From the NCBI GenBank assembly GCA_045593465.1, contig JAZNWT010000066.1:1-30569 (forward strand): a stretch of DNA of 30,569 bases, given 5' to 3'. This stretch comes from Clostridia bacterium. Its GTDB lineage: Bacteria; Bacillota; Clostridia; Christensenellales; CAG-138. Each line of letters starts with the position of its first letter. Within the stretch, counting starts at the first letter, position 1. Below, piece after piece: positions 1 through 27,413 of the stretch. Under the pieces are notes generated by a model. That model was not told where the DNA came from. It saw only the letters and a list, made by a program, of their open reading frames with translations, and searched no databases. The position numbers were made by a program, and so were the translations under genes.

Positions 1-2896
1 GCTTGCCGCTTTCATTTGCAACAATTACGGGTGCCATTGTGCTGGGCGACCTTGTCGATGCAACACCGTCACTTATGCAGGAGTTGAAGCAGAAACCGGT
101 ACCGGGTACTGCAACACTGCTTCCGAAGTTGTCACCCAATGTTACGTTTGCCGCAACTGCGTTTCCCCACTTATCGTAAGTTACAAGCATTGTTGTTGTC
201 TTATTGTCGAAAGGAACAACACCGTCGAGCAAATTGAGTATATCCTCTTTAACGCCAAGCGAAGATCCGCCACGTGCTGTCAAGCCGAAACCGACAGCCG
301 CCGCACGGACAGCATCTGCACTGTCGTGTCCGTATGAAGCCATATCATGACTCGACATTTTCGTGAGCATGCTTATGACACGCTGACCGCCGAAAGCCGT
401 ACCCGAACCTGCATAAAGCTTATAGCCTCTATACGTTGATGTCAGAGCCGTTCTTTCATAGCTTGTATAATTTGCAAAATCGTTTGTTGTTATAACGCCG
501 CCGATTGACCTAATGTAGGAAACAAGTTTTTCCGTAAATTCGCCTTTATAGAAAGCGTCTATGCCGCCGTCGCGGATAATTTCAAGCGTATTGGCTAAAT
601 CTTCGTTTCTGTAGGTATCTCCTACCTGAAGTGCTCCGCCCTCGCTATCCCGTGTAAATGTTTGCACCGCATACGGCAATGTTCCGCGTATCAGCCCTGC
701 TCTGTAAATGAATTCTTCACCAACTATGAATCCGCATCTTGCAAGCTCGATTACAGGATTAAGCACTTCTTCGAGAGTCATTGTGCCGTATTTTTCAAGC
801 ATTGAAATAGCACCGTGTACCATGCCGGGAACAGACAGGCACTTTGCTTGGGGGCTTGAGCTTGCACCGCTCATAGGTGAAAGCGTCATGTAATCGTACA
901 CGAAATATCTGTCCTCATCTGCAAGATAAATCGTAGCAAGACCGCCGCCGCCTACAGAAGAACCCGAAGGCTCGCAAAGACCTACCGCAAACATTGTTGC
1001 AACTGCCGCATCTATTGCGTTACCGCCTGCCTTGAGTATATCAAGACCTATCTTTGAAGCATATGCACTTGCACTTGATACAGCACCCTTTGTGCCGACC
1101 GAGCCCGTCTTGAATGTGTCACCCTCTATATTGCTCGGCACTTCCTCTGTGGGAATCGGCATTGCCGTAGGCTTGGGTGTAGGAGTAGGCTGAGGAGTTA
1201 TTTCACTTGTTGGTTTCGGTGTGGGTAAGCTGTTTCCCGATATATCTTTCCAGCTGTTTGCTGTTATACTTTCAGGCAATGTATTGCTCTGAGCGTATCT
1301 CTCAACTATGGAGCAGAACAAATACAAAAGTGATTCATAGCTCATATTGCCCAATGCGGTCTCGACGTAGCTGGGTACCATCATGTTATATTGAACAAAT
1401 TTGCATATTTTCTCTGCTGCCGTTTTATATTCATCGACAGTCAAAGCACCACTGTTCATACTTTCTGCCGTTCTCTCGCAGTTATCGACTGCATACATCG
1501 GCACTGTTTTATAAGACGTATCATTCACAAATATTGCCAATGTACTTAAAAGCTGAGGCATGCTTATTCTGACATCGCCCATTGTTATGTATGCAGGGAT
1601 ATCTTTAGTTATTTCTATTGTTTTCTTTACTCGCAAAGCCGCCTCAAAAAGTGTGCTTTTGGGCACATATCTCACAGGCTCGCTCTTATCATCATATGAC
1701 GGTTTTTCCGTAAAAGCAGGTGTTCTGCTTGGAGTTACCGGTACAGTTGCTTGCGTGGGAATAGGTGCAGCAAGTGCCGTGCCCGTTATTGTTTTCCATG
1801 ATTTTACCTGAACGGTTTCCAAAACAGTGCCTGAAGCATACATCTGTGCAACTATGTTTGAGAAGGTATGCACAAGCGTTTCAAAGCCTATTTTACCTAT
1901 GCTTGAATCGACATAGCTTACCGCCCTGCCCTCCGCCTGACAGAAATCAAGTATACTTTGTGCTATGGACGCATATTCGTTAAACTCAAGAATGCCTCCG
2001 CCGGTATCTTCGCCCGACTGCTGAGCCTTTTGTCTGTCATAATAATATATTTCTTCGGTTAATGTTCGATTATATGTATCAACCACTATTCTTGCCATAA
2101 GCTCTAAAAAGCTCGGCATCGAAAATCTTAAATTTCCCACTGTAGCATACAGCGGCAATTCTTTATTACGCTCGATTGCCGTATACACACGCAAAGCACT
2201 CTTTTTTGCCAATTCCGAAAATACGGAATCTGGCATGGGTGCAGGATGCGGTGTTGGTGTGGGAACGGGAGTGGGTGTGGGAGGCGGCGTTGAAGCCGAT
2301 GAGGAAATTTCCGCCCACGAATAAACCGTTACATAGTTCGGCAATGCACCGTTTTCATTGTAGTAATTTAATATTTTTGCCCATGAATAGACAAGATTTT
2401 CAAAGCCCACTTTTATTGTGGAATTTCTGCTGCTTTTATATGAGCAATAGTTTGCCGCCAAATCGTACTGTTCAATAAAATCGGAGTTTCTTTGGGACAT
2501 ATCAATATAATCGTCCTGTACTCTTCTAACTCCCATTTCTTCCGCTTTTTCGGTTGTAATATATATTTTCATTTCCGCAGTCACTGCATCACTCGGACTT
2601 TGCGGCATCATAACTTCTTCTATTGTAAGGTCTGAGTTTACGCCGTTGTGTATATTGAGAACGGTATCACACGCAAGCTTGAAATACTGCCCCAAATTTA
2701 TCTCGTTTTTGCCGACTGAAACAGTTTGAGGGAGTGAACAATATGTATCTATATATACTTTCAAATTGCTTGATGCATCCAAAATCTCCTGTCTGCTTAC
2801 AGTCCGGCTACTATCCGCAAAGGTTTTCGGAATAAAGGCAAAAAGCATTATAATTGCCATCATCAAAGCTGTATTCTTTACTGCATTCTTTTTCAT
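1..2896 (-). CDS. Secreted PMBR-like module (x3)-gamma-glutamyltranspeptidase fusion, paralog 1; 3'-partial, runs off the left window edge
   Basis: Hand translation from ATG at 2896 (RBS AAGGAG at 2904-2909) gives 965 codons with no stop down to position 2. Signal peptide MKKNAVKNTALMMAIIMLFAFIPKTFA; three wall-binding-type modules (e.g. [28 protein letters not shown]); GGT motifs [29 protein letters not shown] and [25 protein letters not shown] (predicted nucleophile Thr codon 194-196). Absent from the ORF track because its stop lies outside the window. Confidence 0.93.
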   Translation of the reverse strand, partial: MKKNAVKNTALMMAIIMLFAFIPKTFADSSRTVSRQEILDASSNLKVYIDTYCSLPQTVSVGKNEINLGQYFKLACDTVLNIHNGVNSDLTIEEVMMPQSPSDAVTAEMKIYITTEKAEEMGVRRVQDDYIDMSQRNSDFIEQYDLAANYCSYKSSRNSTIKVGFENLVYSWAKILNYYNENGALPNYVTVYSWAEISSSASTPPPTPTPVPTPTPHPAPMPDSVFSELAKKSALRVYTAIERNKELPLYATVGNLRFSMPSFLELMARIVVDTYNRTLTEEIYYYDRQKAQQSGEDTGGGILEFNEYASIAQSILDFCQAEGRAVSYVDSSIGKIGFETLVHTFSNIVAQMYASGTVLETVQVKSWKTITGTALAAPIPTQATVPVTPSRTPAFTEKPSYDDKSEPVRYVPKSTLFEAALRVKKTIEITKDIPAYITMGDVRISMPQLLSTLAIFVNDTSYKTVPMYAVDNCERTAESMNSGALTVDEYKTAAEKICKFVQYNMMVPSYVETALGNMSYESLLYLFCSIVERYAQSNTLPESITANSWKDISGNSLPTPKPTSEITPQPTPTPKPTAMPIPTEEVPSNIEGDTFKTGSVGTKGAVSSASAYASKIGLDILKAGGNAIDAAVATMFAVGLCEPSGSSVGGGGLATIYLADEDRYFVYDYMTLSPMSGASSSPQAKCLSVPGMVHGAISMLEKYGTMTLEEVLNPVIELARCGFIVGEEFIYRAGLIRGTLPYAVQTFTRDSEGGALQVGDTYRNEDLANTLEIIRDGGIDAFYKGEFTEKLVSYIRSIGGVITTNDFANYTSYERTALTSTYRGYKLYAGSGTAFGGQRVISMLTKMSSHDMASYGHDSADAVRAAAVGFGLTARGGSSLGVKEDILNLLDGVVPFDNKTTTMLVTYDKWGNAVAANVTLGDNFGSSVAVPGTGFCFNSCISDGVASTRSPSTMAPVIVANESGK

Positions 2897-2921
2897 ATTT
2901 CTGCTCCTTATGCGTGCTTCG

Positions 2922-2967
2922 AAAAAAGACACCCACAGATTATTATAATCTTTCTTGCAGGTGCCTT
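2922..2967 (-). terminator. Stem-loop with U-tract between paralogs 2 and 1; may alternatively overlap a promoter/operator for paralog 1
   Basis: Minus strand AAGGCACC...GGTGTCTT followed by TTTT, with inner palindrome AGATT-ATAAT-AATCT; a TATAAT (2947-2942) lies in the loop. Confidence 0.5.
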
Positions 2968-3033
2968 TCAGTATCTTTATTTTAAAGAATAATTCATGTC
3001 ACACCTCTGCAAATTATTATGCCACAAAACGCA

Positions 3034-6000
3034 TCAATAAGCAAATGACATATATTCTCGTCTGTGGTCCGCCGCAGACATTACAGTTCCGTCATTATCA
3101 ATATGTATTGCAGGAACGCAGCCTACACCGCTGCTGTACTCGCCCTCGCTTGTTGTAAGCGAATAACCCCAATTTCTCAAAGTTTGAAGTGTTGAATCGC
3201 TGTACCTTGTTTCAATAGTCATTGCCGAGCTTGAAGCATAGCCGAAGAATCTCGGAGCATTTACAGCTTCACATACATTCATGCCAAAATCGAGAATGTT
3301 ACTGATTGTAATAGCTGTTGCCGTGATTATAGCCTGGTCACCGGGTGAGCCGACAATTATCATGGGTTTGCCGTTGTTCCCCGCAACAATCGCAGGTGCC
3401 ATGGTGCTCTGCACTCTCGAAAGTGATGAGCCGGTGCTTGTTGTCATACCCGAATTAAAGCAGAATCCCATACCGGGTACAGCAACGGAGCAACCGAAAT
3501 TATAGCCCAATGTTACGTTTGCGGCAACCGCATTGCCCCACTTATGGTATGTTACAAGCATGGTTGTAGTCTTGTTGTCGTACGGTACAACATCGTTGAG
3601 CAGGTTAAGCATATCTTCCTTAACGCCGAGTGATGAACCTCGTGAAGTCATTCCGAATGCTACCGCCGTTGCTCTTACTGCCTGTGCACTGTCATGACCG
3701 TAGGAAGCCATATCATGTGCCGACATTTTATTGAGCATGCTTATCACTCTTGAACCACCCTGTGCAGTACCTGAACCTGCGTATACATTATAGCCCCTGT
3801 AATTTGTTGTGAGCGGCTCACGTTCAATACTTGTGTACTGCACAAAATCTTCCTTTGTGATGGTGCCGCCTATGGACTGTATGTAATCTACCATTGCATC
3901 GGTAAACGAGCTGTTATAAAATGCTTCGATTCCGCCATCACGGATTATTGTAAGCGTTGAGGCAAGGTCTACATTTGCAACCGCGTCACCTGCCTGAAGC
4001 GTACCGCCGTAAATATCCCTCGTGAACTGCTGTGTGGGATATGCATACTTTGTATTTATCTGCTTGGATCTGTATACAAACTCTTCGTCAATATAGAAGC
4101 CTCTCTTTGCAAGCTCTATAACGGGATCAAGGATCTGTGCAAGCGACATTGTGCCGTACTTTTCAAGCATTGTTATTGCACCGTGTACCATACCGGGTAT
4201 GCACATCATCTTTGCAAGCACAGTTGTGCTTCCGACACGTGTCGGGGTCTGTGCCATATAGTCCATTATGAGATATCTGTCCTCATCTGCAAGGTAGATA
4301 ACAGCCAAACCGCCGCCGCCTACCGATGAGCCCGAAGGCTCACAAAGACCTACCGCAAACATTGTTGCAACTGCCGCATCCACAGCATTTCCGCCTGCTT
4401 CAAGTATATCAAGACCTATCTTTGATGCATATGCACTTGAGCTTGATACAGCACCGTTTGTGCCCACTGCACCGCTGTTGAATGTATCACCCTCTATATT
4501 GCTGTTTACCTTAGCTGTGGGAACAGGTGCAACATCATAGCTTGCAGGAGGTGTAAACAGGGGGGCAAATGTGGGAGTCGGCGTGGGCGTCGGAGGCACC
4601 GTGGGCGTGGGCGGAGGTGTTATCTCACTTGTAGGCATAGGAGTCGGAAGTGTTTCTCCGCTCACAGTGCCGAAGCTGCTCACATTAAGCGTTTCCGAAA
4701 GCGTGTTGTTTTGAGCATTGTATGATGAAACGATCTTGCAGAAAATCACAACCAATGCTTCAAAGCTCACTTCGCCCAAAACGGTCGCAACATAGCCCGG
4801 CACCATACCGTTGTATTGCACAAATTCACAAACTTTCCGTGCAACACGCATATATTCTTCTTTATTCAGACTGCCTGCTGTCATATTTTCTGCAGACTGT
4901 TCGGGATTTTCCACTGTATACACGGGTGCGTGTGACATTGCGGTGTCCGTTACAAACTTGCATAATGTGTTTAAAAGCTCAGGCATTGTTAAACGAATAT
5001 CATCAAATGCAATATACAACGGAAGCTCTTTATTCAATTCAATGAACTTGCCTGTTCTTGAAGCCGCTTTTTGAAGCATTTCTGCTTCCATATAATATTT
5101 CACACTGCTGCCTGTTTGTGAAGCTGAAACATCCGGGGTAACATGAGCTGTCGGAGAAGGCAATACAACTTCGGATGTTGGAACAGGTAAAGGAAGTGCT
5201 GTTCCCGAAATATCGCTCCATAATTTGACCGAAACAGAATTTGCAAGCACCTCATTGTTTGAATAAGCGGCAAGTATGCGTGAATAAACATAAACAAGCG
5301 TTTCAAAGCCAAGCTTACCCAATGATGAATCAACATAACTTACGGCAGTATTTGTTGCTTCGGCATAGCCTATTATAAATCCTGCAATTTCTATATACTC
5401 GTCAGCAGTCAGGAAGCCTGCCGTTATATCTTCGCCCGACTGTTCGGGATTTTTTCTTCTGTAATAGGGTATTAAGCTCTTATTCACGCCATTTTTAAGC
5501 TCAATAACCGTTCTTGCCATAGCTTCCAGGAAGCTTGGCATATCTAATTTTACAGTTCCCACCGTTACGCTTTGGGGAAGCTTTTTATTGTTTGATATTG
5601 ACAAACTTACACGCTTTGCCGCCTTTATAAAAAATGCCGCGGACTGTGCATTACTCAAAAACGGTACATCACTAACTGCCACAGTGGGAACAGGTGTGGG
5701 CGTAGGCGTGGGAGTTTTCGTGGGAGTCGGAGTTTTTGTAACAACGGGGGTTGTTGCACCCGCTGCTATCTCGCTCCATGAATTTACGGTAACATAATTG
5801 GGCAATGCTCCGTTTTCATTATAGTAATTAAGTATTTTGGACCATGAATAGACAAGGTTTTCAAATCCCACTTTAACAGTTGAATTTCTGCTTTTCTTAT
5901 ATGAGCAATAGTTTGCCGCAACACCGTTGGTCGCTATAAATTCCGAGTTTCTTACGGACATATCATAATAATCGTCCTGCACTCTCCTAACGCCGAGCGA

Positions 6001-6354
6001 CTGTGCGGTTTCTGCATCCACATATGCCTTAAAGCTTTCCGTAACCTCATCGGCAGGATTCTGCGGAAGGTCTACCGTTTCTATGGAATGAGCAATGCTT
6101 GTGCCGTCATGTATAGCTATTACCGCATCGCACGCAAGCTTAAAATACTGTGCGGCATTTATCGCAGTGCCGCCCATATCTATTTGAGCAGGAATTGATG
6201 AATAGGTGTCGATATAGCCTTTCACCCAAGTTGAAGCAGTCAAAATATCCTGCCTGCTTACCGTGGTTGCCGCACTCGCGAACGATAAAGGCAAAATTGA
6301 AGCAAGCATTATAACTGCCGATATAATTGCTGTCGCCCTTTTCATCGTTTTCAT
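3034..6354 (-). CDS. Secreted PMBR-like module (x3)-GGT fusion, paralog 2
   Basis: 1119-aa ORF in the track; more likely start is ATG 6354 (MKTMKRATAII...; GAGAGGA about 8 nt upstream). Signal peptide ending ...SFASA; three modules separated by PT linkers; GGT domain ~4500-3034 with KT-TTMLVTY (nucleophile codon 3565-3567), STMAP and GSPGDQ. Confidence 0.93.
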   Translation of the reverse strand: MKTMKRATAIISAVIMLASILPLSFASAATTVSRQDILTASTWVKGYIDTYSSIPAQIDMGGTAINAAQYFKLACDAVIAIHDGTSIAHSIETVDLPQNPADEVTESFKAYVDAETAQSLGVRRVQDDYYDMSVRNSEFIATNGVAANYCSYKKSRNSTVKVGFENLVYSWSKILNYYNENGALPNYVTVNSWSEIAAGATTPVVTKTPTPTKTPTPTPTPVPTVAVSDVPFLSNAQSAAFFIKAAKRVSLSISNNKKLPQSVTVGTVKLDMPSFLEAMARTVIELKNGVNKSLIPYYRRKNPEQSGEDITAGFLTADEYIEIAGFIIGYAEATNTAVSYVDSSLGKLGFETLVYVYSRILAAYSNNEVLANSVSVKLWSDISGTALPLPVPTSEVVLPSPTAHVTPDVSASQTGSSVKYYMEAEMLQKAASRTGKFIELNKELPLYIAFDDIRLTMPELLNTLCKFVTDTAMSHAPVYTVENPEQSAENMTAGSLNKEEYMRVARKVCEFVQYNGMVPGYVATVLGEVSFEALVVIFCKIVSSYNAQNNTLSETLNVSSFGTVSGETLPTPMPTSEITPPPTPTVPPTPTPTPTFAPLFTPPASYDVAPVPTAKVNSNIEGDTFNSGAVGTNGAVSSSSAYASKIGLDILEAGGNAVDAAVATMFAVGLCEPSGSSVGGGGLAVIYLADEDRYLIMDYMAQTPTRVGSTTVLAKMMCIPGMVHGAITMLEKYGTMSLAQILDPVIELAKRGFYIDEEFVYRSKQINTKYAYPTQQFTRDIYGGTLQAGDAVANVDLASTLTIIRDGGIEAFYNSSFTDAMVDYIQSIGGTITKEDFVQYTSIEREPLTTNYRGYNVYAGSGTAQGGSRVISMLNKMSAHDMASYGHDSAQAVRATAVAFGMTSRGSSLGVKEDMLNLLNDVVPYDNKTTTMLVTYHKWGNAVAANVTLGYNFGCSVAVPGMGFCFNSGMTTSTGSSLSRVQSTMAPAIVAGNNGKPMIIVGSPGDQAIITATAITISNILDFGMNVCEAVNAPRFFGYASSSAMTIETRYSDSTLQTLRNWGYSLTTSEGEYSSGVGCVPAIHIDNDGTVMSAADHRREYMSFAY

Positions 6355-6385
6355 ACTCTTCGTCCTCTCTGTTTTGTGTTTTAAT

Positions 6386-6433
6386 TTAGGCACCCATAAG
6401 CACTATTCTTTTTAAATGCTGTAGGGTGCCTAA
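6386..6433 (-). promoter_or_regulatory. Intergenic stem-loop without U-tract between paralogs 3 and 2 (possible mRNA stabiliser or processing site)
   Basis: Perfect 10-bp inverted repeat TTAGGCACCC (6386-6395) / GGGTGCCTAA (6424-6433) with further imperfect inner pairing; not followed by a T-run on the minus strand. Confidence 0.5.
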
Positions 6434-6472
6434 TCAATCAGTTATTATTGTTCAAAACTGCTTGATTTTGAA

Positions 6473-9400
6473 TCAATATGCAAATGACATATACTCACGT
6501 CTGTGGTCAGCCGCCGCCATAATAGTTCCGTCACTATTAACATGTATTGCCGATACGCAGCCAACGCCGCTGCTGTATTCGCCCTCGCTTGTTGTGAGCG
6601 TATAGCCCCAATTCTTAAGCGTGTTGCGTGTTGTTGAGCTGTATCTTGTTTCGATGGTCATTGCCGACGTTGATGCATAACCGAAGAATCTCGGAGCGTT
6701 TACAGCCTGGCATACATTCATACCGAAGTCAAGAATGTTGCTGATTGTAATAGCTGTTGCCGTAATTATAGCCTGGTCACCGGGTGAGCCGACGATTATC
6801 AACGGAGTACCGTCCGTATCTGCAACGATCGTGGGAGCCATTGTGCTCTGTACTCTTGAGAGTGATGTGCCGGTGCTTGTTGTCATGCCCGAGTTGAAGC
6901 AGAAGCCGGTGCCGGGTACTGCAACCGAACAGCCGTAGTTGTAACCCAAAGTTACGTTTGCGGCAACCGCATTGCCCCACTGGTCGTAAGTTGTGAGCAT
7001 TGTTGTTGTCTTGTTGTCGTAAGGTACAACATCGTTGAGCAAGTTGAGCATATCTTCCTTAACGCCAAGTGATGAACCTCTTGAAGTCATACCGAAAGCT
7101 ACTGCTGTTGCACGCACTGCATTTGCACTGTCATGACCGTATGAGGACATACTGTGACTTGACATCTTGCCGAGCATCGAGACAACTCTTGAACCGCCCT
7201 GTGCACTGCCCGAACCTGTATAAACATCGTATCCTCTGTATGTTGTTGTAAGAGGATCTCTTTCAATACTTGTATACTGCTGGAAGTCGGACTTCTTGAT
7301 AGTACCGCCGATGGACTGGATGTAGTTAACCATTGTTGTTGTGAACGAGCTGTTATAGAAAGCATCTATACCGCCGTCACGGATAAGCTCAAGCGTTGTT
7401 GCAAGGTCTTCATTCCTGAATGCATCACCTGCTTCAAGTGTGCCGCCGTTCATATCCTTTGTGAACAGATTTGTGGGGTATGCGTAATTTGTATTTATCT
7501 GTGTTGCTCTGTAAACAAACTCATCGTCAATGTAGAAGCCGCTTCTTGCAAGCTCAATAACAGGATCGAGAATTTCAGCAAGTGTCATTGTGCCGTACTT
7601 TTCAAGCATTGTGATTGCACCGTGTACCATGCCCGGTACGCACATCATCTTTGCAAGCACTGTTGTACTGCCGACTGTTGACGGAGTCTGTGCCATGTAG
7701 TCCATTATGAGATATCTGTCTTCATCTGCAAGGTAGATAACTGCCAAACCGCCGCCACCGACCGATGAACCGGAAGGCTCGCAAAGACCTACCGCAAACA
7801 TTGTTGCAACTGCCGCATCTATTGCGTTACCGCCTTTTTGGAGGATATCAAGACCTATCTTAGATGAATATGCACTTGAGCTTGATACCGCACCCTTTGT
7901 ACCGACAGAGCCGCTCTTAAACGTATCGCCTGTTATCGTGCTTACAGTTGTTGCCGTGGGTTTGGGAGCAACAGTATAATCAGGTGAAGGTGTTGAAGGT
8001 GAAGTTGTCGTTGAGGGTGATGAGGTAGTTGTTGTTTCCGAATCAGCCGCAGGTACATACTGAAGTGTTACACTTGAGGGCAATGCACTGTTTGAATCAT
8101 AGTATGCAAGTATGCGTGTGAACATAAGCAAGCCTGCTTCATACGTCATCTGACCTGTGCAGTTTGAAACAGCAAATCCGTTTGCGTTGCTTGATGTTGT
8201 GGGATACGATGCACTTGCACCGACTGCATTCGTTGATGCACCGTTGCCCGTTTCCATGTATACCGTCTGACGGATTGCAAAGTTCATATAGAATGTCTTT
8301 GATACCGATGTAAGCTCAGTACCGTCCGTATACTTGATCGTATAGTTTGCAACAAGTGTGGGTACATCATATGAGTAGCTTGTTTTCTTATATGTGGCAC
8401 TTGTGTTGCCGTTGTAAATATCCTGTATAGCCTTTGCCGCAATAATGAAGTAATTCTGCGGTGCAACCGTTACACCGTCAACCGTTAAGCCGCCCGGATA
8501 GAATGCCGTGCCCGATGTGTAGCCTGCCAAAGCTGTATTTGCTGCAGCAGCAAGCTCCTTAATGGTGAATACTCCATCGGGTGTTGCTGTGGGAACAGGT
8601 GTCGGTGTTGCTGTGGGAACGGGCGTCGGTGTCGCCGTCGGAACGGGTGTGGGTGTCGCGGTCGGAACAGGTGTGGGTGTTGCCGTCGGAACAGGAGTGG
8701 GTTCCTCTGTGGGAACGGGAGTGGGTTCCTCTGTGGGAACAGGAGTGGGTGTTACTTCGCTCGTAGGAGCGGGAGTTGCAACAACCGTACCGGATACCGA
8801 TGCCCATGACTTGGGAGCTATTGTTTCTGCCAAACCGTTCTCTGCATCATAGCTTGATGCCAATTCACAGAACATTATAAGCAATGATTCAAAGCTCAAT
8901 TCGCCGAGTGACGTTGAAACATAGCTGGGAGCCATTGAGTTATAGTATACGAATTCGCAAATCTTTGCCGCAACTCTCTTGTATTCTTCCATGCTCAATG
9001 TGCCGTCGGTCATGCTTTCAGCTGTCTTCTGGCACTTTGCAACGGTGTATATCGGATACTCTGTCATTTCAGTATCCAATACAAATACTGCAAGCGTACT
9101 CAAAAGCTGGGGCATTGTAAGACGGAGACCGTCAGTTGTTGCAGTTATGTAAGAAGGAACTTTGCTGTTTGCGTTCACTGTCTTTAATACTCTTGCTGCG
9201 GTAGCAATAAGTATATCCTTTGTTATTGTTCCGGTTGCTTGAGCACTTTCAATGAATGCAGGAAGTGTTGCTTCGGGAACGGGAGTTGCCGATTGTGCAG
9301 GAGCCTGTGTTACAACAGGAGCTTCGGTTGCAACAGGAGCTTCGGTGGGAAGTACAACTTCTTCCGTGGGCAAAGGAGCAGGAAGTGCTGTGCCTGTTAC

Positions 9401-10642
9401 ATCACCCCATGCAACAACATCAACACTCGATGCCAATGCACCGTCTGCACAGAACTGTGCAAGAAGCTTTGCATATGTGTGCACGAGTGTTTCAAAGCCG
9501 ATTTTTCCTATGCTTGAATCAACATAGCTTACTGCTCTGTCAGTTGCTTCATAATATGCGAGTATTTCTTTTGCGATTTCAATATACTCTGAAACCTCAA
9601 GCGTTCCGCCCGTTGTATCTTCGCCGGATTTTTCTGCCTTTTCGCGTTCATAATAATATGTTACGTCGCCGCTTGTGCCTTCATATTTTTCAACTACAAC
9701 TCTTGCTGCAAGTTCCAAGAAGCTTGCCATTGAGAATTTAACCGTACCTATTGTCAGATATGTAGGTACCTTTTTATTTGTTTCAATTACCGTGTACAGA
9801 CGCTTTCCGCCTTTTACAGCCCAGTCTGTTGATATTGCATCGGGAGTTGGTGTGGGTTCAGCTGTGGGCTCGGGCGTGGGAGCTTCTGTGGGTGTAGGTG
9901 TAGGTGCAGCCGTTGTGGGTGCAACTGTGGGAGTAGGTGTGGGTGCAGCCGTTGTGGGTGCAGCCGTTGTGGGTGCAACCGTGGGTGTTTCCGTGGGTGT
10001 TGCCGTGGGTGTTACAGTAGGTGTTGCAGTGGGTGCAACAGTGGGTGTCGACGCATTTGCCGCTATGCTTGCCCATGAATCAACGGTTACATAGTTGGGA
10101 AGCGAACCGTTTTCATTGTAGTAATTTAATATTTTTGCCCATGAATAAACAAGGTTTTCAAAACCAACCTTTATTGTGGAGGATCTGCTCTTTTCGTATT
10201 CGCAGTAATTTGTCGCAATACCGTCCTCCATAAACTCGGAATTTCTTTCGGACATATCGGTGTAGCTGTCATAATGACGCGAACCCGACATTGAGCTTCC
10301 TTTATATTTTGTAACATAAATTTTAAAACTGCTGCTTACAGCATCTGAAGGGCTACTCGGCATTGATACAGACTCAACCGTGTAAGTTGAGTTACTATTA
10401 CCGTCATTAAGATCGATTATAGCATCACAGGCAAGTTTAAAATACTGTGCAGTATTGATAGAATTGCCTCCAACGCTTACACTGCTCGGGAGTGAGCAAT
10501 ATGTATCAATGTAAGACTTGAGGTTGCTCGATGCAGTAAGTATCTGCTTCAATGTTACCGTTGTTGCCGCACTTGCAATCGACACCGGAAGTATTGAAAC
10601 CACCATAATCACTGCCATCAAAAACGCTAAATACCTTTTCAT
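6473..10642 (-). CDS. Secreted PMBR-like module (x4)-GGT fusion, paralog 3 (1389 aa)
   Basis: RBS GGAGG at 10653-10657; signal peptide [25 protein letters not shown]; four modules, long Pro/Thr/Ala linkers and a Ser/Thr-rich linker; GGT domain ~7940-6473, nucleophile Thr codon 7004-7006. Confidence 0.95.
8582..8749 (-). repeat. Coding tandem repeat, 7 x 24 nt (PTPVPTEE x2, PTPVPTAT x5), Pro/Thr linker
   Basis: Direct 24-nt periodicity with synonymous variation and no spacers; lies inside the paralog 3 ORF. Confidence 0.9.
9839..10050 (-). repeat. Coding low-complexity Pro/Thr/Ala linker ([11 protein letters not shown]-type repeats)
   Basis: Imperfect repeats between modules 1 and 2 of paralog 3. 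Confidence 0.85.
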
Positions 10643-10675
10643 TTTTTCGACGCCTCCACTTTTATTGTCTATACT

Positions 10676-10728
10676 TTAACAAGTGTTTATTAAAAAAAAA
10701 TTAAATAGACACTGTTAACATTATAACA
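10676..10728 (-). promoter_or_regulatory. Extended -10 promoter (TGnTATAAT) for paralog 3, followed by an imperfect inverted repeat in the 5' leader
   Basis: Minus strand TGTTATAAT at 10728-10720; arms TTAACAGTGTCTATT (10718-10704) and AATAAACACTTGTTAA (10691-10676) around a T-rich loop. Confidence 0.55.
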
Positions 10729-10796
10729 TTATCATTTTTCGCCACATTGTTCAATAGTTTGTTAAAATATATTTTTTCCTTATGCTGCACTGCACT

Positions 10797-10827
10797 AAAA
10801 AAAGCGGATGTTATACCCGCTTTTTTT
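10797..10827 (-). terminator. Rho-independent terminator after paralog 4
   Basis: AAAAAAAGCGG-N9-CCGCTTTTTTT inverted repeat with flanking A/T tracts, 16 nt past the stop at 10844. Confidence 0.85.
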
Positions 10828-10843
10828 ATTTTTCTTGTTCCTG

Positions 10844-13800
10844 TTAGTATGCGTACGACATATATTCGCGTCTTATATCCGCCGCAGTATAAACCGTGCC
10901 GTCCTTGTCAACATAAATTGCCGATACACAGCCAACGCCGTCGCTGAATTCGTCCTCTGCATACAGTGTGAAGCCCATTTCTTTAAGGTCATCTATTACC
11001 CACGGAGAATAACGTGCTTCTATTGTTATTGTCGAGCCGCTTCCGTAAAGTCTGGGAGCGTGTATTGCCTGGACAACAGTCATGTCGAAATCCAGCATAT
11101 TGCTTATTGTTATTGCAGTTGCCGTAATGATTGCACTGTTACCGGGAGAGCCTACACCAAGCATCGGCGTACCGTCTTCATGAGCAACAATGCAGGGTGA
11201 CATCGTACTGCCTACTCTTTTGCCGACCGCACAATTGTGTGATGACATGCAGAAACCCGTACCCGGCATTGCTATTGCAGAGCCGAAGTTTGCACCCAAG
11301 GTATTGTTTGAGGATACCATATTACCGTATTTATCACGTGTTACAAGCATTGTGGTTGATTTCGTATCAAACCAATCAACATCTTCCGTAAGCTCATCAA
11401 GACTCAATACGAGCTTTTCATTCATACTGCTTGACGGGCGTATACCGAATGAAGTAGCGGTTATTCTTACGGTTTCACTGTGGTCATGCCCCAAAAGTGC
11501 CAAATCGTAATTATCCATTTTTGCAAGCATATTTATAACGCTTGCACTGCCCGTTGCACTGCCAGAACCGCCGTATATGGTATAGCCTCGATACTCTCCT
11601 ATTCTCGGTTCTCCTTCAAACGCTTCGTATGCCGCAAAATCCTCACGTGTTATTGTACAGCCTTGACTCTGCAAATATGCACAAAGCTCATCGGTAAATT
11701 CGCTGTCGTAAAAATACTCGACACCGTTATCGCTTATTGCCTGCAATACATTTGCAAGGTCTTCGTTTTTGAATATATCGCCCTCTTGGAAATATTCGCC
11801 GTCATTTCTCATCAGGCTGTTAAGGTATGTACCCTCCTTATCGCCTACAAGTCTTGACTTTTTGCAGAACGTATTTGTAACCGCAAAGCCCTCTCTTGCA
11901 AGCTTGATTACGGGAGCAAGAACTTGCTGTAATGTCATCGTGCCGTACTTTTCAAGCATCTGTGAAGCACCCAGCACAATACCCGGAACACCCACAGGTC
12001 CACTTCCCGTACCGGCCGTCATATAGTCGTATGTTATGTATTTATCTTCGTCCGCAAGATATATAACGGTTATTCCGTCGCCACCGATGCTTGAACCCGA
12101 TGGCTCGCAAAGTCCGACAGCGAATATCGTTGCAACAGCCGCATCTATTGCGTTGCCGCCTGCTTTGAGTATATCAACGCCTATTTTTGATGCGTACTTG
12201 CTGCTGCTTGCAACGCCGCCGTTTTGTCCGACGCCGCCTGTGCCGTAAAGGTCACCCTCCATCACACCTATGCCGTTATACGGTGTGGGAACGGGAGTGG
12301 GCATGGGCGACAATGTTACCATAGGAGTCGGGAGTACCATACCGGTAAGGCTTTCCCAGGTTTCCACCGTCACGGAGTCAGGCAAAACGTAATTATAATC
12401 TTCAAACTGTTCAACTGTTTTTGCGAAGAAATACAGGCTTGTTTTATATCCCATAGCACCGCTTGATGTTTGAACATACGAGGGTGCAAGACTTGTTTTT
12501 TTCGTATAGTCAAGCATTTCTTTTGCAAGCTTTATATACTCTTCTTTGCCAATTACTGCACCGTTTTTGATATTCTCGCCGTCACCCTCGGGATTGTCGG
12601 CATTTATGAGTGCAACGTCCACAAAAAGATTTCCGTCAATATAAAGAACGGTATTGAGCATGAGCATGAGGAAATCGGAAAGCTCAAGCGTATTTCCGTC
12701 TACCGTTATTCTGCTCGGAAGCTTTTGGGAATATTTAACCGATGAAACAAGTCTTTTTGCCGCAAGAGCAATGCTTGTTAAATCAGCCGTTTTTTCATTT
12801 CTTGCACGGCTTACGGTATTGTTACTTTCGGGAACAAACGACGGTGTTGCCGTATATTGCGGCTCTATGGAAGCTGTCTCAAGCTTTTCTCCCGTTATCC
12901 TTTCCCATGTTCTCACGGTAATGCTTTCAACAAGCTCGTCACTGCTGCTGTATGCAATTATTTCCGCATAGGTATATATAAGATTTTCAAAGCTTATGCT
13001 GCCCAAGCTGCACGGCATAAATTCGGGAGCTGTTCCCTCGTCAGACATATAAGCCAATATGCAGTATGCAGTTTCAAGATACTCGCTCCTTGAAAGCTTG
13101 CCCTCCTTCAAATTTTCCTTGCCCTTTGTAATATTTAAAACATTAAGCACGCTAAAGCCGCTGTCATTTTCGCACGCAACATCCAAAACAGTATCGGCAA
13201 AAAGTGAAAGCAATTCGCTCATATAAAGCTTCATATCGTCCATCATGACGCTCATCGGAAGCTTTTTGTTTCTTTCTATTGTAATAACTACACGCTCTGC
13301 GAGATGCTTTACCTGTATAAACTCTATTCTGCTGCCGGCTTGGTCTTTTTCGCTGTCCGCATCTTGGGCAATGAATATGTGCCACGGAACAATGTTGATA
13401 CTCTCCGGAAGAACATTGTTTTTGCCGTAGAAGGAAAGTATCTGTGCAAATGCAAACACTGCATTATTATATCCTATCCTGCCATTTACAGCAGTAAGAT
13501 AATTTGCCACTCTTCCGTTTTTCTCAATGAATGTGATTCCCTTTTGAGCTATTTCAATATAATCGTCCTTTGGCACCACGAACATTTCCGTGGTATCTGC
13601 AGGTGCAGGTGCAGCAGAAGCATCGACAAACATTACATCTTCATTATAGCCTTCGTTTATGCTTACCGTTGCTCTGAAAGCAAGGTTCATATACTGCCCC
13701 ATATTCATATCAACGCCGCCGACGTTTATTGTTTCGGGCAATGCACTGTTCTTTCTTATTTCACGCTCCAAGCTTATCGAAGCCGCCACTACCTGCTCAA

Positions 13801-14404
13801 CGGTATACATTTTACCCGTAGGTGCAACCGTGGGTGTTGCCGTGGGAGCTGTGGTTTTAAGGTCCTCACCGCTGAACGCTTTCCACGATTCAACCGTTAA
13901 TGTAAGAGGAAGTCTTTCATTTTCATTATAGAATTTAAGAACACGCGAAAACGCGTAGAGCACTCCCTGATAGGATATTCTGTTGTTTTTGGGAGTTGTG
14001 CTATGATTGGGTGCTCTGTTGTTGTTCTTTACGAAAGTCAATGCATTCTGAGCTATTGTTACATAAGCTTCGGTGTCCAGCGTTTCACTGCCCGAAAACT
14101 TTTCCTGCGGCTTGGGAGCAGCTTCACACGCAATTACTTCAATCTGTGCAAGAGTATCCGCCTCCGTGCTGAGTGCAACAACGGCACTGAGCATCAAAGC
14201 ATAGTAACACGCCGTATCCACCGTATCCTGCCCTATTTTTACGGTGTCGGGGATTTTTTTATTTGCATTTATGTATTCTGTTGCCGTTGCCGCCGCATCA
14301 AGCACCTGTGCAATGCTGTAAGTTTGGGAAGCGGCACTCGAAAGTGTGGGTATGTATGCAAAAAGCATCATAAACACTAAAATAAAAGATATTATTTTTT
14401 TCAA
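10844..14404 (-). CDS. Secreted PMBR-like module (x4)-GGT fusion, paralog 4
   Basis: The track starts at TTG 14413; TTG 14404 (MKKIISFILVFMMLFAYIPTLSSA) fits RBS AAAGGGG (14414-14420) with 9-nt spacing. Modules such as YVTIAQNALTFVKNNNRAPNHST...ISYQGVLYAFSRVLKFYNENERLPLTLTV; GGT domain ~12270-10844, KS-TTMLVT nucleophile codon 11354-11356. Confidence 0.93.
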   Translation of the reverse strand: MKKIISFILVFMMLFAYIPTLSSAASQTYSIAQVLDAAATATEYINANKKIPDTVKIGQDTVDTACYYALMLSAVVALSTEADTLAQIEVIACEAAPKPQEKFSGSETLDTEAYVTIAQNALTFVKNNNRAPNHSTTPKNNRISYQGVLYAFSRVLKFYNENERLPLTLTVESWKAFSGEDLKTTAPTATPTVAPTGKMYTVEQVVAASISLEREIRKNSALPETINVGGVDMNMGQYMNLAFRATVSINEGYNEDVMFVDASAAPAPADTTEMFVVPKDDYIEIAQKGITFIEKNGRVANYLTAVNGRIGYNNAVFAFAQILSFYGKNNVLPESINIVPWHIFIAQDADSEKDQAGSRIEFIQVKHLAERVVITIERNKKLPMSVMMDDMKLYMSELLSLFADTVLDVACENDSGFSVLNVLNITKGKENLKEGKLSRSEYLETAYCILAYMSDEGTAPEFMPCSLGSISFENLIYTYAEIIAYSSSDELVESITVRTWERITGEKLETASIEPQYTATPSFVPESNNTVSRARNEKTADLTSIALAAKRLVSSVKYSQKLPSRITVDGNTLELSDFLMLMLNTVLYIDGNLFVDVALINADNPEGDGENIKNGAVIGKEEYIKLAKEMLDYTKKTSLAPSYVQTSSGAMGYKTSLYFFAKTVEQFEDYNYVLPDSVTVETWESLTGMVLPTPMVTLSPMPTPVPTPYNGIGVMEGDLYGTGGVGQNGGVASSSKYASKIGVDILKAGGNAIDAAVATIFAVGLCEPSGSSIGGDGITVIYLADEDKYITYDYMTAGTGSGPVGVPGIVLGASQMLEKYGTMTLQQVLAPVIKLAREGFAVTNTFCKKSRLVGDKEGTYLNSLMRNDGEYFQEGDIFKNEDLANVLQAISDNGVEYFYDSEFTDELCAYLQSQGCTITREDFAAYEAFEGEPRIGEYRGYTIYGGSGSATGSASVINMLAKMDNYDLALLGHDHSETVRITATSFGIRPSSSMNEKLVLSLDELTEDVDWFDTKSTTMLVTRDKYGNMVSSNNTLGANFGSAIAMPGTGFCMSSHNCAVGKRVGSTMSPCIVAHEDGTPMLGVGSPGNSAIITATAITISNMLDFDMTVVQAIHAPRLYGSGSTITIEARYSPWVIDDLKEMGFTLYAEDEFSDGVGCVSAIYVDKDGTVYTAADIRREYMSYAY

Positions 14405-14450
14405 AACAAACAACCCCTTTACTTTTTATTTGCTGTATTATCCTATACCG

Positions 14451-16988
14451 TCAATATGCGTATGCCATATATTCACGCCTGTAATCCGCACCTGCATATA
14501 TAACATCGTTATCGTCAACATATATTGCAGAAACACAGCCAACGCCGCTGCTGTATGATTCCATGGTATTCAAGCTGTAACCCATGGCTCTTAATCCATT
14601 GAGCGTTGCACTTGAATAGCGGTTTTCAATAGTCAAGGTTGAGCCGCTTCCGTAAAATCTCGGAGCGTGTATTGCCTGACTTACATTCATGCCGAAATCA
14701 ATTATATTGCTTACGGTGATTGCCGTTGCCGTAATGATTGCACTGTTTCCGGGTGAGCCTGCACCGAGCATGGGAAGCCCGTCATTTCCCGCAACTATAA
14801 CAGGTGCCATGGTGCTCTGTATTCTTGATGACGGTACTCCCGTGCTTGTGTTCAAGCCGGAATTGAAGCAGAAGCCCGTTGTGGGTACTGCAACACCGCA
14901 GCCGAAGTTATCGCCCAAAGTATTGTTGGAAGCAACCATATTGCCCCATTGGTCATATGTGACGAGCATCGTTGTGCTCTTCATATCGTACCATTCGCAG
15001 TTTTCAAGATTGCTCAAGTCAAGCAATTCATCATCTTTTTGAGAAATCAGACGCGATGACGGTCTTACACCGAAAGCTGTTGCCGTTATTCGTACCGTTT
15101 CTGCATTGTCATGCCCCAAGGAAGCAAGGTCATATTCACTCATGCTGTTGAGCATGGATATAACTCTTGAGCCACCCTGAGCCGTGCCCGAGCCTGCATA
15201 AACCTTGTAGCCTCTGTAGGTTGTGGTAAGCGGAACACGCTCAAGTGATGTATAATTCGCAAAATCCGTTCTCGAAACGGAGCTGCCGTTATTTATGAGA
15301 TAATCGCACATCATATCGGTAAATTCGCTGTTGTAAAAACCCTCTATGCCCTTATCCGATATGAGCTGTAATGTGTCTGCAAGGTCCGGATTTTTATATA
15401 TTTCGCCCGTATTATAAAGTTTTCCGTTATTACGATAGAGATTTACGGCATAAGGATATTCCGTGGGAACTATGGTCATCTTATAAGCCATGGTAGATGT
15501 TACCTCAAAGCCCTCACGTGCAAGCTTGATGACGGGTGCCAAAATTTCCTGACGCGTCATTGTTCCGTATTTTTCAAGCATACTCAACGCACCGTGAACA
15601 ATGCCGGGGATCATTATTTTGTTTGCCCTGCCACTGCCCGTAAAACTCGACGGAGTTTGGGACATATAATCAAATACTATGTATTTTTCTTCATCCGCAA
15701 GATAAATTACCGACAGACCACCGCCGCCTACCGACGAGCCCGACGGTTCACAAAGCCCGACAGCAAATATTGTTGCAACAGCCGCATCTATTGCGTTGCC
15801 GCCTTTTTGGAGTATGTCAAGACCTATCTGTGATGCAAATTTGCTTGCACTCGATACTGCACCGTATACGCCCACGGCACCGGTTTCAAACTCGTCACCT
15901 TCCATTGCACCTACGCCCGCATACGGAGTGGGAGTGGGACGCGGTGTTGCAGTTGCCGTTTCAACAGGAAGCGGAAGCTCTTTTCCCGTGAGTGTTTTCC
16001 ATGTTTTCAGCTGATATGTTTCGGGTAAATAGTATTTATGCCTATAATGGCTTATTATTTCAGCAAGCAGACATATACCTGTTTCAATGCCGGCTTTTCC
16101 AAGCGATATCTCACAGTAGCTCGGCACCATGCCGCTTTTCTGAGTTTGTTTTACAACCTCACGTGCTATTTCTATATAATCATCCCGTGTTATATTGCCG
16201 TCTTTTAAATCTTCGCCGTTATTTTCAGGCTGTTCCGACTTGATTATTTCAATATTGCTTACCGTATTCGTTGAAAAATCCATCACAAGCTTTGCCAATG
16301 AATAATAAATTTCGGGCATTGTAAGCCTTGCCGAATCCGTAATTATATATACCGGCAGTTCCTTTTCAACTTTTACCGTCGTTAAAATACGCTCCGCCAC
16401 ATTCATAAGGGCTATTCTGCCGACTATCTTTGAACCGTCCTGCTTTTCTTCTGCCTGCTTCTGTTCAAAGGGCGATTCGAATTTTAAGCGGACAATCGAT
16501 GGCAAAGTATTATTTTCAATATAGCTTATAAGCACTCTTGAAAACGCAACCAGCATTGTTTCATAGCTTATTTTTCCGTATTTCGATGCACCGTAATTCG
16601 GCACTCTGTTATAGAGTGCCATAAACTTTGAAGCACTTTTTGCAATGCTCATATATTCGCTCTGCTGTGCATATATGTTGATAGTATTTCCGTTTGAATT
16701 TATGGGCTTTAAAAGCTTTTCATTCAAAGCTATGCTGCCTGTTTTTTTCGCTTCAACAGCCACTATTGCATCGGTTATAAGCTGGAAGCATTTTTCAACG
16801 GCAACGCGGTCATTTCCTATGTCAAGCTCCAACGGAACAGCTCTGCCTGAGTCAACAGCATTGCACACCTGATATGCTACGCTTCCGATTTCGGACAAAG
16901 TATAAGAAGTGTCGCTTTGTGCAGTTGCAAGCGGTACTGACGCAATCAATAAAATAAACGCAAGTATAAATGCTGTTATTCTTTTCAT
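14451..16988 (-). CDS. Secreted PMBR-like module (x2)-GGT fusion, paralog 5 (845 aa)
   Basis: Signal peptide MKRITAFILAFILLIASVPLATA; two modules (YMSIAKSASKFMALYNRVPNYGASKYGKISYETMLVAFSRVL); GGT domain ~15920-14451, nucleophile codon 14973-14975. Short gap and no terminator before paralog 4 suggest co-transcription. Confidence 0.94.
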   Translation of the reverse strand: MKRITAFILAFILLIASVPLATAQSDTSYTLSEIGSVAYQVCNAVDSGRAVPLELDIGNDRVAVEKCFQLITDAIVAVEAKKTGSIALNEKLLKPINSNGNTINIYAQQSEYMSIAKSASKFMALYNRVPNYGASKYGKISYETMLVAFSRVLISYIENNTLPSIVRLKFESPFEQKQAEEKQDGSKIVGRIALMNVAERILTTVKVEKELPVYIITDSARLTMPEIYYSLAKLVMDFSTNTVSNIEIIKSEQPENNGEDLKDGNITRDDYIEIAREVVKQTQKSGMVPSYCEISLGKAGIETGICLLAEIISHYRHKYYLPETYQLKTWKTLTGKELPLPVETATATPRPTPTPYAGVGAMEGDEFETGAVGVYGAVSSASKFASQIGLDILQKGGNAIDAAVATIFAVGLCEPSGSSVGGGGLSVIYLADEEKYIVFDYMSQTPSSFTGSGRANKIMIPGIVHGALSMLEKYGTMTRQEILAPVIKLAREGFEVTSTMAYKMTIVPTEYPYAVNLYRNNGKLYNTGEIYKNPDLADTLQLISDKGIEGFYNSEFTDMMCDYLINNGSSVSRTDFANYTSLERVPLTTTYRGYKVYAGSGTAQGGSRVISMLNSMSEYDLASLGHDNAETVRITATAFGVRPSSRLISQKDDELLDLSNLENCEWYDMKSTTMLVTYDQWGNMVASNNTLGDNFGCGVAVPTTGFCFNSGLNTSTGVPSSRIQSTMAPVIVAGNDGLPMLGAGSPGNSAIITATAITVSNIIDFGMNVSQAIHAPRFYGSGSTLTIENRYSSATLNGLRAMGYSLNTMESYSSGVGCVSAIYVDDNDVIYAGADYRREYMAYAY

Positions 16989-18706: not shown

Positions 18707-18733
18707 ATTTTTTATTCGATTTTTATGCTTATA

Positions 18734-19237
18734 TCAGCACTTTTCAGGCTCCTTTGAGCCGTCCTCATCAACCAATGTGATTTTCTTTATTCTTACGGTC
18801 GTTATCGGTGCATCGCGAAAATCCGTAGGTATTGATGCGATTTCATCAACTATTTCAATACCCTCAACAACCTTGCCGAACGCCGCATACTGACCGTCCA
18901 AAAACGGTGAATCCTTGTGCATGATAAAAAACTGTGAGCCGGCGGAGTTGGGAGCGGATGTGCGAGCCATTGATATAACGCCTCTTTTATGCTCTATGGG
19001 ATTATTGAAACCGTTGCCGATAAATTCACCCTTTATGGAGTAACCGGGGCCGCCCATGCCCGTACCATCGGGACAGCCGCCCTGTATCATGAAGCCGTGT
19101 ATTATGCGGTGGAATGTCAAACCGTCATAAAAGCCCTTTGATGCAAGATTCAAAAAGTTTGTTACCGTGTTGGGAGCAGCTTCTTTATCAAGCTCAAGCG
19201 TTATTTTTCCGCCGCCTTCCATTTCTATAACTACCAT
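18734..19237 (-). CDS. Cyclophilin-type peptidyl-prolyl cis-trans isomerase, cytoplasmic
   Basis: FYDGLTFHRIIHGFMIQGG, HKRGVISMAR, AGSQFFI, LDGQYAAFG; RBS AAGGAG at 19244-19249. Confidence 0.97.
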   Translation of the reverse strand: MVVIEMEGGGKITLELDKEAAPNTVTNFLNLASKGFYDGLTFHRIIHGFMIQGGCPDGTGMGGPGYSIKGEFIGNGFNNPIEHKRGVISMARTSAPNSAGSQFFIMHKDSPFLDGQYAAFGKVVEGIEIVDEIASIPTDFRDAPITTVRIKKITLVDEDGSKEPEKC

Positions 19238-19280
19238 GTTTTTCTCCTTTTGTTATGTATTTAGTTTTTTTATTTATAAT

Positions 19281-20813: not shown

Positions 20814-20838
20814 GCTTTATTTAAGTAAACACAAAACG

Positions 20839-20862
20839 AAAAAACTCCCTCAAGGGAGTTTT
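20839..20862 (-). terminator. Rho-independent terminator
   Basis: AAAACTCCC-TCAA-GGGAGTTTT hairpin with an A-run that reads as the U-tract on the minus strand, downstream of ORF 20923-21636. Confidence 0.75.
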
Positions 20863-20922
20863 AACAGGAATTTTTCATTATTCACCATTCATTATTCATT
20901 TTAAAGTCATTCATGACCTTAA

Positions 20923-21636: not shown

Positions 21637-21674
21637 CGCTTTGCTCCTTCCGTATTTTTATTATGAAAAAATAA

Positions 21675-22283: not shown

Positions 22284-22376
22284 GAAAACCATCCTCCTGA
22301 AAAAATCAAACTGTTTCCTCAATCGTAGCATATAAAAAGGCAATTCGTCAATCCGTAACCGTAACAGATAGTTAAC

Positions 22377-27282: not shown

Positions 27283-27311
27283 TTGCTTTTTAAATATCAT
27301 CATGTTAAACT
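27283..27311 (+). promoter_or_regulatory. SigA promoter upstream of the riboswitch
   Basis: TTGCTT (27283-27288) - 17 nt - TAAACT (27306-27311), with the TG extended -10. Confidence 0.6.
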
Positions 27312-27317
27312 TACTGT

Positions 27318-27403
27318 AATCTGCCACCGGGTAGTGAAATGCATCAGCATTCGTTCACACATCGTTAGGTCTTTGAAGATGTGTGCCGAGTGCTTATTTT
27401 TTT
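27318..27403 (+). ncRNA. Guanidine-IV (GGAM-1)-like riboswitch with intrinsic terminator
   Basis: P1 CTGCC-ACCG-GGTAG (27321-27334, CCACCGGG signature). Terminator stem GCATTCG..CACACATC / GATGTGTG..CGAGTGC, loop containing AGGTCT (27367-27372, complementary to ACC in loop 1), then a U-tract at 27394-27403. Upstream of a PnuC-like gene, a known context for this class. Recognised from memory of the motif, not by a covariance search. Confidence 0.8.
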
Positions 27404-27413
27404 GGAGGATAAA

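Follow-up and report, generated by a model that had tools for sequence, protein, structure and literature searches.

How did a gut bacterium of the Clostridia come to carry tandem pseudomurein-binding (PMB) modules, in numbers that differ from gene to gene, and what are they doing ahead of gamma-glutamyltranspeptidase (GGT) domains? The question is raised by five adjacent genes at one end of a 30,569-nt stretch of DNA (hereafter the window), which is the whole of the 30.6-kb contig C66 (JAZNWT010000066.1) in assembly GCA_045593465.1, a metagenome-assembled genome (MAG) of 1.69 Mb in 221 contigs (92% complete, 3.9% contamination) from the Christensenellales lineage CAG-138. The titles of the closest records read 'Clostridia bacterium' and name goat colon and rectum. 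As the best explanation of the locus as a whole we favor, with moderate confidence, an old transfer between domains of life that brought a PMB domain of archaeal type into this lineage, where it expanded and now would dock GGT enzymes on pseudomurein. The domain itself is known; what is new is its fusion to GGT, the scale on which a bacterium carries it, and its fast divergence.

Positions 2–16988 of the window are filled by five large minus-strand open reading frames (ORFs; 2–2932, 3034–6393, 6473–10642, 10844–14413, and 14451–16988). All five matched both the pseudomurein-binding repeat family PMBR (PF09373; 29–102 bits against a cut-off of 24.9) and the GGT family (PF01019; 194–284 bits, with both subunit regions covered) above the Pfam cut-offs, and a K-TTTML stretch is visible in the translations of all five. 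The encoded proteins, P1 to P5, each start with a Sec-type signal peptide and continue with the modules and the GGT domain, and no cell-surface anchor was recognizable in any of them. P1 (2–2896, minus strand like the others, with the likely ATG at 2896) has three modules and loses its 3' end at the contig end, so the array may continue beyond it. P2 (3034–6354) has three modules with Pro/Thr linkers, P3 (6473–10642) has four with long Pro/Thr linkers, P4 (10844–14404) has four, and P5 (14451–16988) has two. The P3 linkers (window positions 8579–8753 and 9886–10048) are encoded by 24-nt (also 15- to 72-nt) tandem repeats, slippage-prone spacers from one module to the next. In the sister species G002 (contig C73, 1–697), a fourth gene with signal peptide and module lies past the P2-type gene and is cut by the contig end. 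Two further PMBR-GGT paralogs elsewhere in the genome (contigs C11 and C155) have one module each, so the GGT family ranges from one to four modules, and 7/7 GGT genes of the genome carry them. A scan of the genome contigs based on P5 returned mainly distant GGTs (~30% identity) and two congeners.

An earlier note on this DNA had counted about 16 modules, arranged 3/3/4/4/2, between positions 1200 and 16900. A hidden Markov model built from the modules recovered that same arrangement in P1–P5: 16 full-length copies (model positions 2–151) of ~150 amino acids each, all ahead of the GGT domain, with module DNA spanning 1223–16913. Fifteen of them had E-values of 1e-19 to 1e-65, and the sixteenth, P3 module 4 (residues 690–866), is divergent from the other window modules and reached 106 bits after its inclusion in the model. 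On the minus strand, and listed from module 1 onward, the modules lie at 2300–2809, 1781–2233, and 1223–1672 in P1; at 5761–6270, 5203–5655, and 4648–5100 in P2; at 10058–10567, 9392–9844, 8789–9235, and 8045–8575 in P3; at 13868–14329, 13367–13816, 12890–13333, and 12341–12793 in P4; and at 16470–16913 and 15984–16433 in P5. Identity between modules at different positions is 14–34% versus 52–84% among the GGT domains, in line with the note's view that the modules are the more diverged part; equal-position modules of P1–P3 are 43–64% identical. The note had also singled out an insertion and an NYC stretch in module 1 of P1–P3 that P4 and P5 lack, and the alignment agreed. The strings AEEMGVRRV (P1), AQSLGVRRV (P2), and an 11-residue counterpart (P3), together with the NYC[S/E] stretch and the 16 residues that follow it (NYCSY in P1, NYCEY in P3), are located in module 1 and align as insertions of ~15 and ~6 residues; the other modules, including module 1 of P4 and of P5, are without them.

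By their PF09373 match, their motif pattern, and their predicted PeiP/PeiR-like fold, the modules are members of the PMB domain family. A PMB motif is a repeated helix-strand unit of 30–35 amino acids that has hydrophobic positions in its core and carries a conserved Pro close to its end (PMC3210951). In AlphaFold models of P4 module 2 (predicted local distance difference test, pLDDT, 93.5) and P2 module 1 (pLDDT 92.6), the domain is compact and consists of two homologous halves, both predicted as strand-helix-hairpin-helix-strand. Each module has four helix-strand units; its first LP motif has an invariant Pro, and one Tyr and one Leu are invariant or nearly so. Since the halves are duplicated and the 33-residue Pfam PMBR matches sit at motif positions 1, 3, and 4, one module corresponds to four PMBR-type motifs, and PeiP and PeiW are reported with four motifs as well, equal to one module here (PMC4592898). 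Foldseek with the predicted models placed PeiP (8z4f) as the top match in the PDB (probability 1.0, E 3e-4, 154 columns), P4 module 2 having PeiP as its best structural match, and among the viral models of BFVD the top match was again PeiP (Q77WJ4). The modeled half-modules superpose on PeiP and PeiR at 3.1–3.7 Å. The template modeling (TM) score of the whole module to PeiP, predicted model against solved structure, is only 0.41 because the halves are set at a different angle. A sequence search of the PDB found no relative, and the ESM Atlas gave weak leads only (scores 0.75–0.77), to archaeal PMBR clusters. In the model of P2 module 1, the first insertion adds a short helix with a loop where the two halves join, and the NYCSY stretch makes a longer hairpin; the sister-species ortholog of this module has the same hairpin and a junction loop differing in length and sequence.

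The layout of the five proteins resembles that of the pseudomurein endoisopeptidases PeiP (psiM2, 8z4f), PeiW (psiM100), and PeiR (8z4n/8z4h), of which PeiP and PeiW are lysins of archaeal viruses. In these enzymes an N-terminal four-motif wall-binding domain stands before a C-terminal wall-cleaving enzyme and each motif closes with the conserved Pro of an LPxxVxV-type strand. Unlike the Pei enzymes, with one such domain each, the proteins here have two to four whole domains, Pro/Thr-rich linkers, and a bacterial host, and their catalytic partner is an N-terminal nucleophile (Ntn) hydrolase of the GGT family, whereas that of the Pei enzymes is a Cys-His-Asp transglutaminase-like peptidase. The background on which the earlier note drew, that PMB motifs are described from Methanobacteriales and their viruses (PMC3210951, PMC3124540) and that binding depends on repeat number, agrees with the literature: PMB domains bind pseudomurein, as was demonstrated for MTH719 and PeiW, and three motifs are required (PMC3124540). 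The published dependence, however, was measured on motifs of 30–35 amino acids, and one module here already equals four of these.

Expansion, which the note had proposed, extends across the genome: at least 32 ORFs with ~70 modules lie on more than 25 of its contigs (C28, C63, C65, C37, C11, C30, C69, C189, C200, C134, C79, and C221 among them; loci L002–L021). Beyond GGT, the fusion partners are transglutaminase-core (Pei-type) peptidase domains (four genes), GHL10-type glycosidase-like domains (four), and type I dockerins (seven), as well as a metallo-beta-lactamase fold, BspA-type leucine-rich repeats, and a VWA/tip-pilin protein. One protein of 1178 amino acids (L013; contig C69, 3847–7380) joins PMBR modules to a cohesin and a dockerin and, judged from its domains, looks like an adaptor through which wall-binding modules could be plugged into a complex of cellulosome type; nine cohesin matches occur in the genome overall. 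Fusions to GGT were confined to bacterial-type matches among those seen. A separate match, P0222 (891 amino acids), has GHL10, PMBR, and a transglutaminase core in one protein.

The transglutaminase fusions are the ones that both sides share. A protein on contig C28 with three modules and a transglutaminase core gave a 691-residue alignment with Methanobacterium proteins at 35% identity, and seven PMBR-linked transglutaminase domains of bacteria group in a single clade (SH-aLRT 99). This clade and the end-to-end alignment make a PMBR-transglutaminase gene a plausible vehicle of transfer. The PMBR-transglutaminase surface proteins of Methanobacterium, Methanothermobacter, and Methanobrevibacter, which are annotated as 'pseudomurein-binding repeat-containing' or 'transglutaminase domain-containing' and belong to the adhesin-like protein repertoire, have the same 150-amino-acid module (~100 bits each) in tandem arrays of 2–8, and four bacterial genes repeat their architecture. 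They differ from the bacterial proteins in two respects. No GGT, dockerin, or cohesin was present among the archaeal matches examined, and modules within one archaeal protein are near-copies, whereas the bacterial ones are deeply diverged.

What might such modules hold on to in a gut? Pseudomurein is found only in Methanobacteriales and Methanopyrus and has isopeptide bonds of the gamma and the epsilon type, a gamma-Glu-epsilon-Lys cross-link among them (PMC4592898); for its gamma-glutamyl bonds and its glycan no enzyme is known (PMC3210951). An unlikely but serious competitor is bacterial murein. The modules would then bind murein or its fragments, either in the bacterium's own wall as a LysM/SLH-like anchor or on other gut bacteria, and the GGT would act on the gamma-D-glutamyl bonds of peptidoglycan or on poly-gamma-glutamate; a cross-domain origin could still hold. 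Lysozyme-treated spheroplasts of Lactococcus and E. coli were bound by the PMB domains of MTH719 and PeiW, which leaves room for a ligand other than pseudomurein, although intact bacterial cells were not bound in the same study (PMC3124540). In favor of murein it also counts that our literature search found no paper on a bacterial PMBR protein and no binding data for one. Against it stand the SLH domains present in the genome, which are available for anchoring to its own wall, and the partner transglutaminase-core peptidases, which are Pei-type and align end to end with methanogen proteins. Further, the other named carriers of the module family are all pseudomurein-walled archaea, and the habitat is the ruminant hindgut, which is rich in Methanobrevibacter. 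LysM and SLH multi-repeat domains, as in bacterial autolysins and cellulosome anchors, do resemble the present arrays in being variable tandem repeats fused to wall hydrolases, with copy number affecting binding, but their fold is unrelated, the repeats here appear aimed at another organism's wall, and SLH coexists with them in the same genome.

On the side of the enzyme, CapD of Bacillus anthracis is likewise a secreted GGT-fold enzyme, with an envelope polymer containing gamma-glutamyl bonds as the likely substrate. The nearest module-free GGTs that we found for the proteins here are only ~30% identical. We know of no GGT that carries wall-binding repeats. With pseudomurein as the preferred ligand, the modules would perhaps let the bacterium grip or digest methanogen walls.

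Among bacteria the module is close to private. It was present in 3/3 genomes of the bacterium's own genus, with 24–36 PF09373 matches each (36 in this genome), and in 0/38 genomes from other genera of the family (22) and other families of the order (16). It was likewise found in 0/400 sampled genomes of the class, and in the phylum sample the 150-amino-acid profile gave one weak match among 400 genomes. The class, phylum, and family figures are samples, and absence holds for the genomes searched. None of 14 control genomes, including four archaea without pseudomurein, had a PMBR match. The earlier note had set against transfer a scenario in which the module is widespread and vertically inherited in Bacillota, and these counts do not bear that scenario out. 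Its near-absence from the bacterium's relatives makes a crossing between domains probable, and on this distribution a cross-domain origin is well supported. The one phylum match (L107; G824, contig C21, 35559–38981) belongs to another family and is an ORF of at least 691 amino acids with a single weak module (31.6 bits; 26 bits with PF09373).

The module genes do belong to a bacterium. Bacterial ribosomal protein L20 is present in the genome, and neither archaeal L37ae nor McrA was found in it; on the presence of L20 and the lack of McrA, a methanogen was rejected as the source of the window. In the sister genome G001, PMBR genes share two 100-kb contigs (C23 and C38) with genes of the sigma-70 family, which matched only bacterial genomes among the controls. 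Mis-binning of the module genes is excluded.

On the archaeal side, an exhaustive profile search of 1.84 billion representatives returned 1074 proteins, 290 of them at E<=1e-30, with nearly all matches spanning the whole module. The named archaeal clusters were Methanobacterium (several species, complete genomes), Methanothermobacter marburgensis, Methanobrevibacter wolinii, and M. filiformis, all three genera being represented by isolate genomes; the named bacterial clusters were 'Clostridia bacterium' and a single 'Oscillospiraceae bacterium' MAG. Judged by composition and name, about 12 of the best 150 of the 1074 matches were bacterial; sorting by Asn content misfiled 2/10 checked proteins (P0020 and P0089) and is a rough guide only. 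A protein homology search gave four matches with the module profile and eight with P2 residues 42–582. PMB domains have been reported in most Methanobacteriota (PMC13135261), and the carriers of PMB motifs listed in a 2011 review were limited to four genera of methanogens, five of proteobacteria, and two prophages. P0004 (775 amino acids), from a 'Bacteroidales bacterium' MAG, has modules that group with Methanobacterium and would represent either a mis-binned archaeal contig or a recent transfer.

A phylogeny of individual modules, which the earlier note had suggested as a check, resolved the array and left the deeper history poorly supported. FastTree of 510 modules put the bacterial modules in three large clades and the archaeal ones in two groups without a protein in common, the first of Methanobacterium/Methanothermobacter type and the second of Methanobrevibacter type. 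In the IQ-TREE analysis of 95 modules, modules 1, 2, and 3 of P1–P3 each formed a clade by position (100/100, 100/99, and 100/94, respectively), and nine GGT-proximal modules, including modules 2 and 3 of P1 and modules 3 and 4 of P4, formed a clade restricted to the window (97/88). P5 module 2 was sister to module 3 of P1–P3 (91/84), P4 modules 1 and 2 paired weakly (89/66), and P5 module 1, on a long branch, was placed with little certainty. An approximately unbiased (AU) test did not reject a single clade of all 49 bacterial modules (p = 0.292), and a single transfer is possible.

The note had inferred acquisition across domains, possibly from archaea by a bacterium. The first half of this holds up well, the module being foreign to the bacterium's relatives and at home in pseudomurein-walled methanogens. 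As to the second half, the IQ-TREE backbone is weak (24/78) and the tree unrooted, so the trees give no direction of transfer; the breadth of the archaeal carriers and the logic of the ligand make archaeon to bacterium most probably the direction. Other results join the weak, unrooted backbone in speaking against our preferred explanation. Best identities of the bacterial modules are 27–35% to each other versus 29–38% to archaeal ones, and their diversity would fit modules that had diverged before they were transferred, rapid change afterward, or an origin in bacteria. Sampling on the archaeal side is biased: the search profile was built from bacterial modules, and the best 150 of the 1074 matches were examined. 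Module DNA has 41.7% GC versus 42.6% for the genome, and its GC at third codon positions is like that of neighboring genes, leaving no compositional trace of transfer; such genome-like values fit an old transfer because the sister-species orthologs are already only 59–74% identical. A tblastn search of the module against 50,697 phage records returned nothing, and aligning the module profile with PeiP by hhalign gave no significant match (15% identity, E=0.07), so the connection to the Pei enzymes is one of predicted structure.

Transfer in reverse, with the module born in gut Clostridia and passed to Methanobacteriales, seems improbable to us. The unrooted tree would accommodate it, FastTree puts two of the large bacterial clades outside the archaeal groups, and the sampled archaeal modules are no more diverse than the bacterial ones. 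Yet on the archaeal side the carriers come from several genera, some of them free-living or thermophilic (Methanobacterium, Methanothermobacter), and from the viruses of these archaea (PMC3210951, PMC13135261), while the bacterial carriers amount to one genus and a few MAGs, with 1 of ~840 other sampled Bacillota genomes. The validated ligand is confined to Methanobacteriales and Methanopyrus (PMC4592898), and the more divergent PMB domains (PeiP, PeiR) occur on the archaeal side only. An old vertical Bacillota domain lost almost everywhere, or an archaeal contig mis-binned into a bacterial genome, is scarcely credible even for a MAG in 221 contigs with 3.9% contamination, and even though the 'Bacteroidales bacterium' protein may itself be mis-binned: loss in all 38 family and order genomes and ~800 class and phylum genomes would be far less parsimonious, the modules lie on more than 25 contigs of this genome and in two sister genomes, the 100-kb G001 contigs hold them together with sigma-70 genes, they are fused to dockerin and cohesin, and their GC equals that of the genome.

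How, then, did the number of modules come to differ between the genes? Shuffling, as the earlier note had it, was mostly not borne out. P1–P3 are whole-gene copies with the same module order, except for P3 module 4, and the nine-module clade is restricted to the window. Sister-species orthologs keep their counts at 59–74% protein identity (P5 type two, P4 type four, P2 type three), so the module numbers are old and stable within each line. The sole good case of exchange is P3 module 4. Its identity with the remaining modules of the window is 13–26%; with the one module of the GGT paralog on C155 it is 66%, and with module 1 of a dockerin-transglutaminase protein on C65 it is 57%. These identities point to gain, loss, or exchange between paralogs. 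P0079, a metagenomic relative, has a P1-type first module and two modules in all. Within these stable numbers the sequences move quickly: between orthologs, modules are 35–59% identical versus 72–85% for the GGT domain, a rate about twice as high, and the distal modules of P4 have changed most. This faster change is the one observation that bears on the note's proposal that the modules may tune avidity or recognize different wall chemotypes. Synonymous sites are saturated between orthologs at 35–59% protein identity.

From the observed anatomy, distribution, homology, and fast divergence of the modules we infer a history whose conditional parts are which way the transfer ran, what the modules bind, and what their copy number does. 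A domain family at home in the surface proteins of pseudomurein-walled methanogens would have entered a narrow lineage of gut Clostridia in an old inter-domain transfer, most probably from archaeon to bacterium and possibly carried by a PMBR-transglutaminase gene of the kind still common to both sides end to end. The module would then have multiplied to ~70 copies in at least 32 genes and been joined to bacterial parts, namely GGT, the GHL10-type glycosidase-like domain, dockerins, and cohesin. Its number per gene may have changed in three ways: by whole-gene duplication with the order kept (P1, P2, and P3), by duplication of modules inside the family (the nine GGT-proximal modules), and, occasionally, by modules being gained, lost, or exchanged with paralogs elsewhere (P3 module 4). 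The secreted proteins would use their modules to dock the GGT hydrolase/transpeptidase multivalently on pseudomurein sacculi, more modules giving more contact points, and gamma-glutamyl bonds there would be cut or transferred.

We put forward more tentatively, and with some doubt, that this goat-gut genus may be specialized in attaching to and dismantling pseudomurein-walled methanogens. The borrowed module would target a secreted cohesin-dockerin toolkit to the wall, in which GGT would serve the gamma-glutamyl bonds, Pei-like peptidases the epsilon-Lys bonds, and GHL10-type enzymes the glycan. The modules, diverging fast and varying in copy number, would track the wall chemotypes by which Methanobrevibacter and its relatives differ.

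Our literature search found no description of bacterial PMBR-GGT proteins or of PMBR expansion in Clostridia, and no description of a bacterial enzyme that binds or cuts pseudomurein. To our knowledge, the only pseudomurein-lytic enzymes known come from methanogen viruses. If the preferred explanation is true, the proteins would be new tools for the lysis of methanogens and leads for lowering enteric methane, and they would offer a concrete case of a binding domain that crossed domains of life and was then coupled to catalytic and cellulosome parts of bacteria. For repeat biology, they provide arrays with orthologs whose binding modules change at about twice the rate of the attached enzyme.

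The remainder of the window holds genes of other kinds. Adjoining the array, positions 17099–22343 encode a 535-amino-acid protein that matches GT2 weakly, two isomerases of cyclophilin type, one of them N-terminally extended, and ORFs of 510 and 237 amino acids without a Pfam match. An Rfam scan of the whole window found no family at the gathering score, a guanidine-IV riboswitch candidate (27283–28106) being unconfirmed at that threshold. A pair of AbiEii toxin and AbiEi antitoxin genes lies on the minus strand at 24250–25664.

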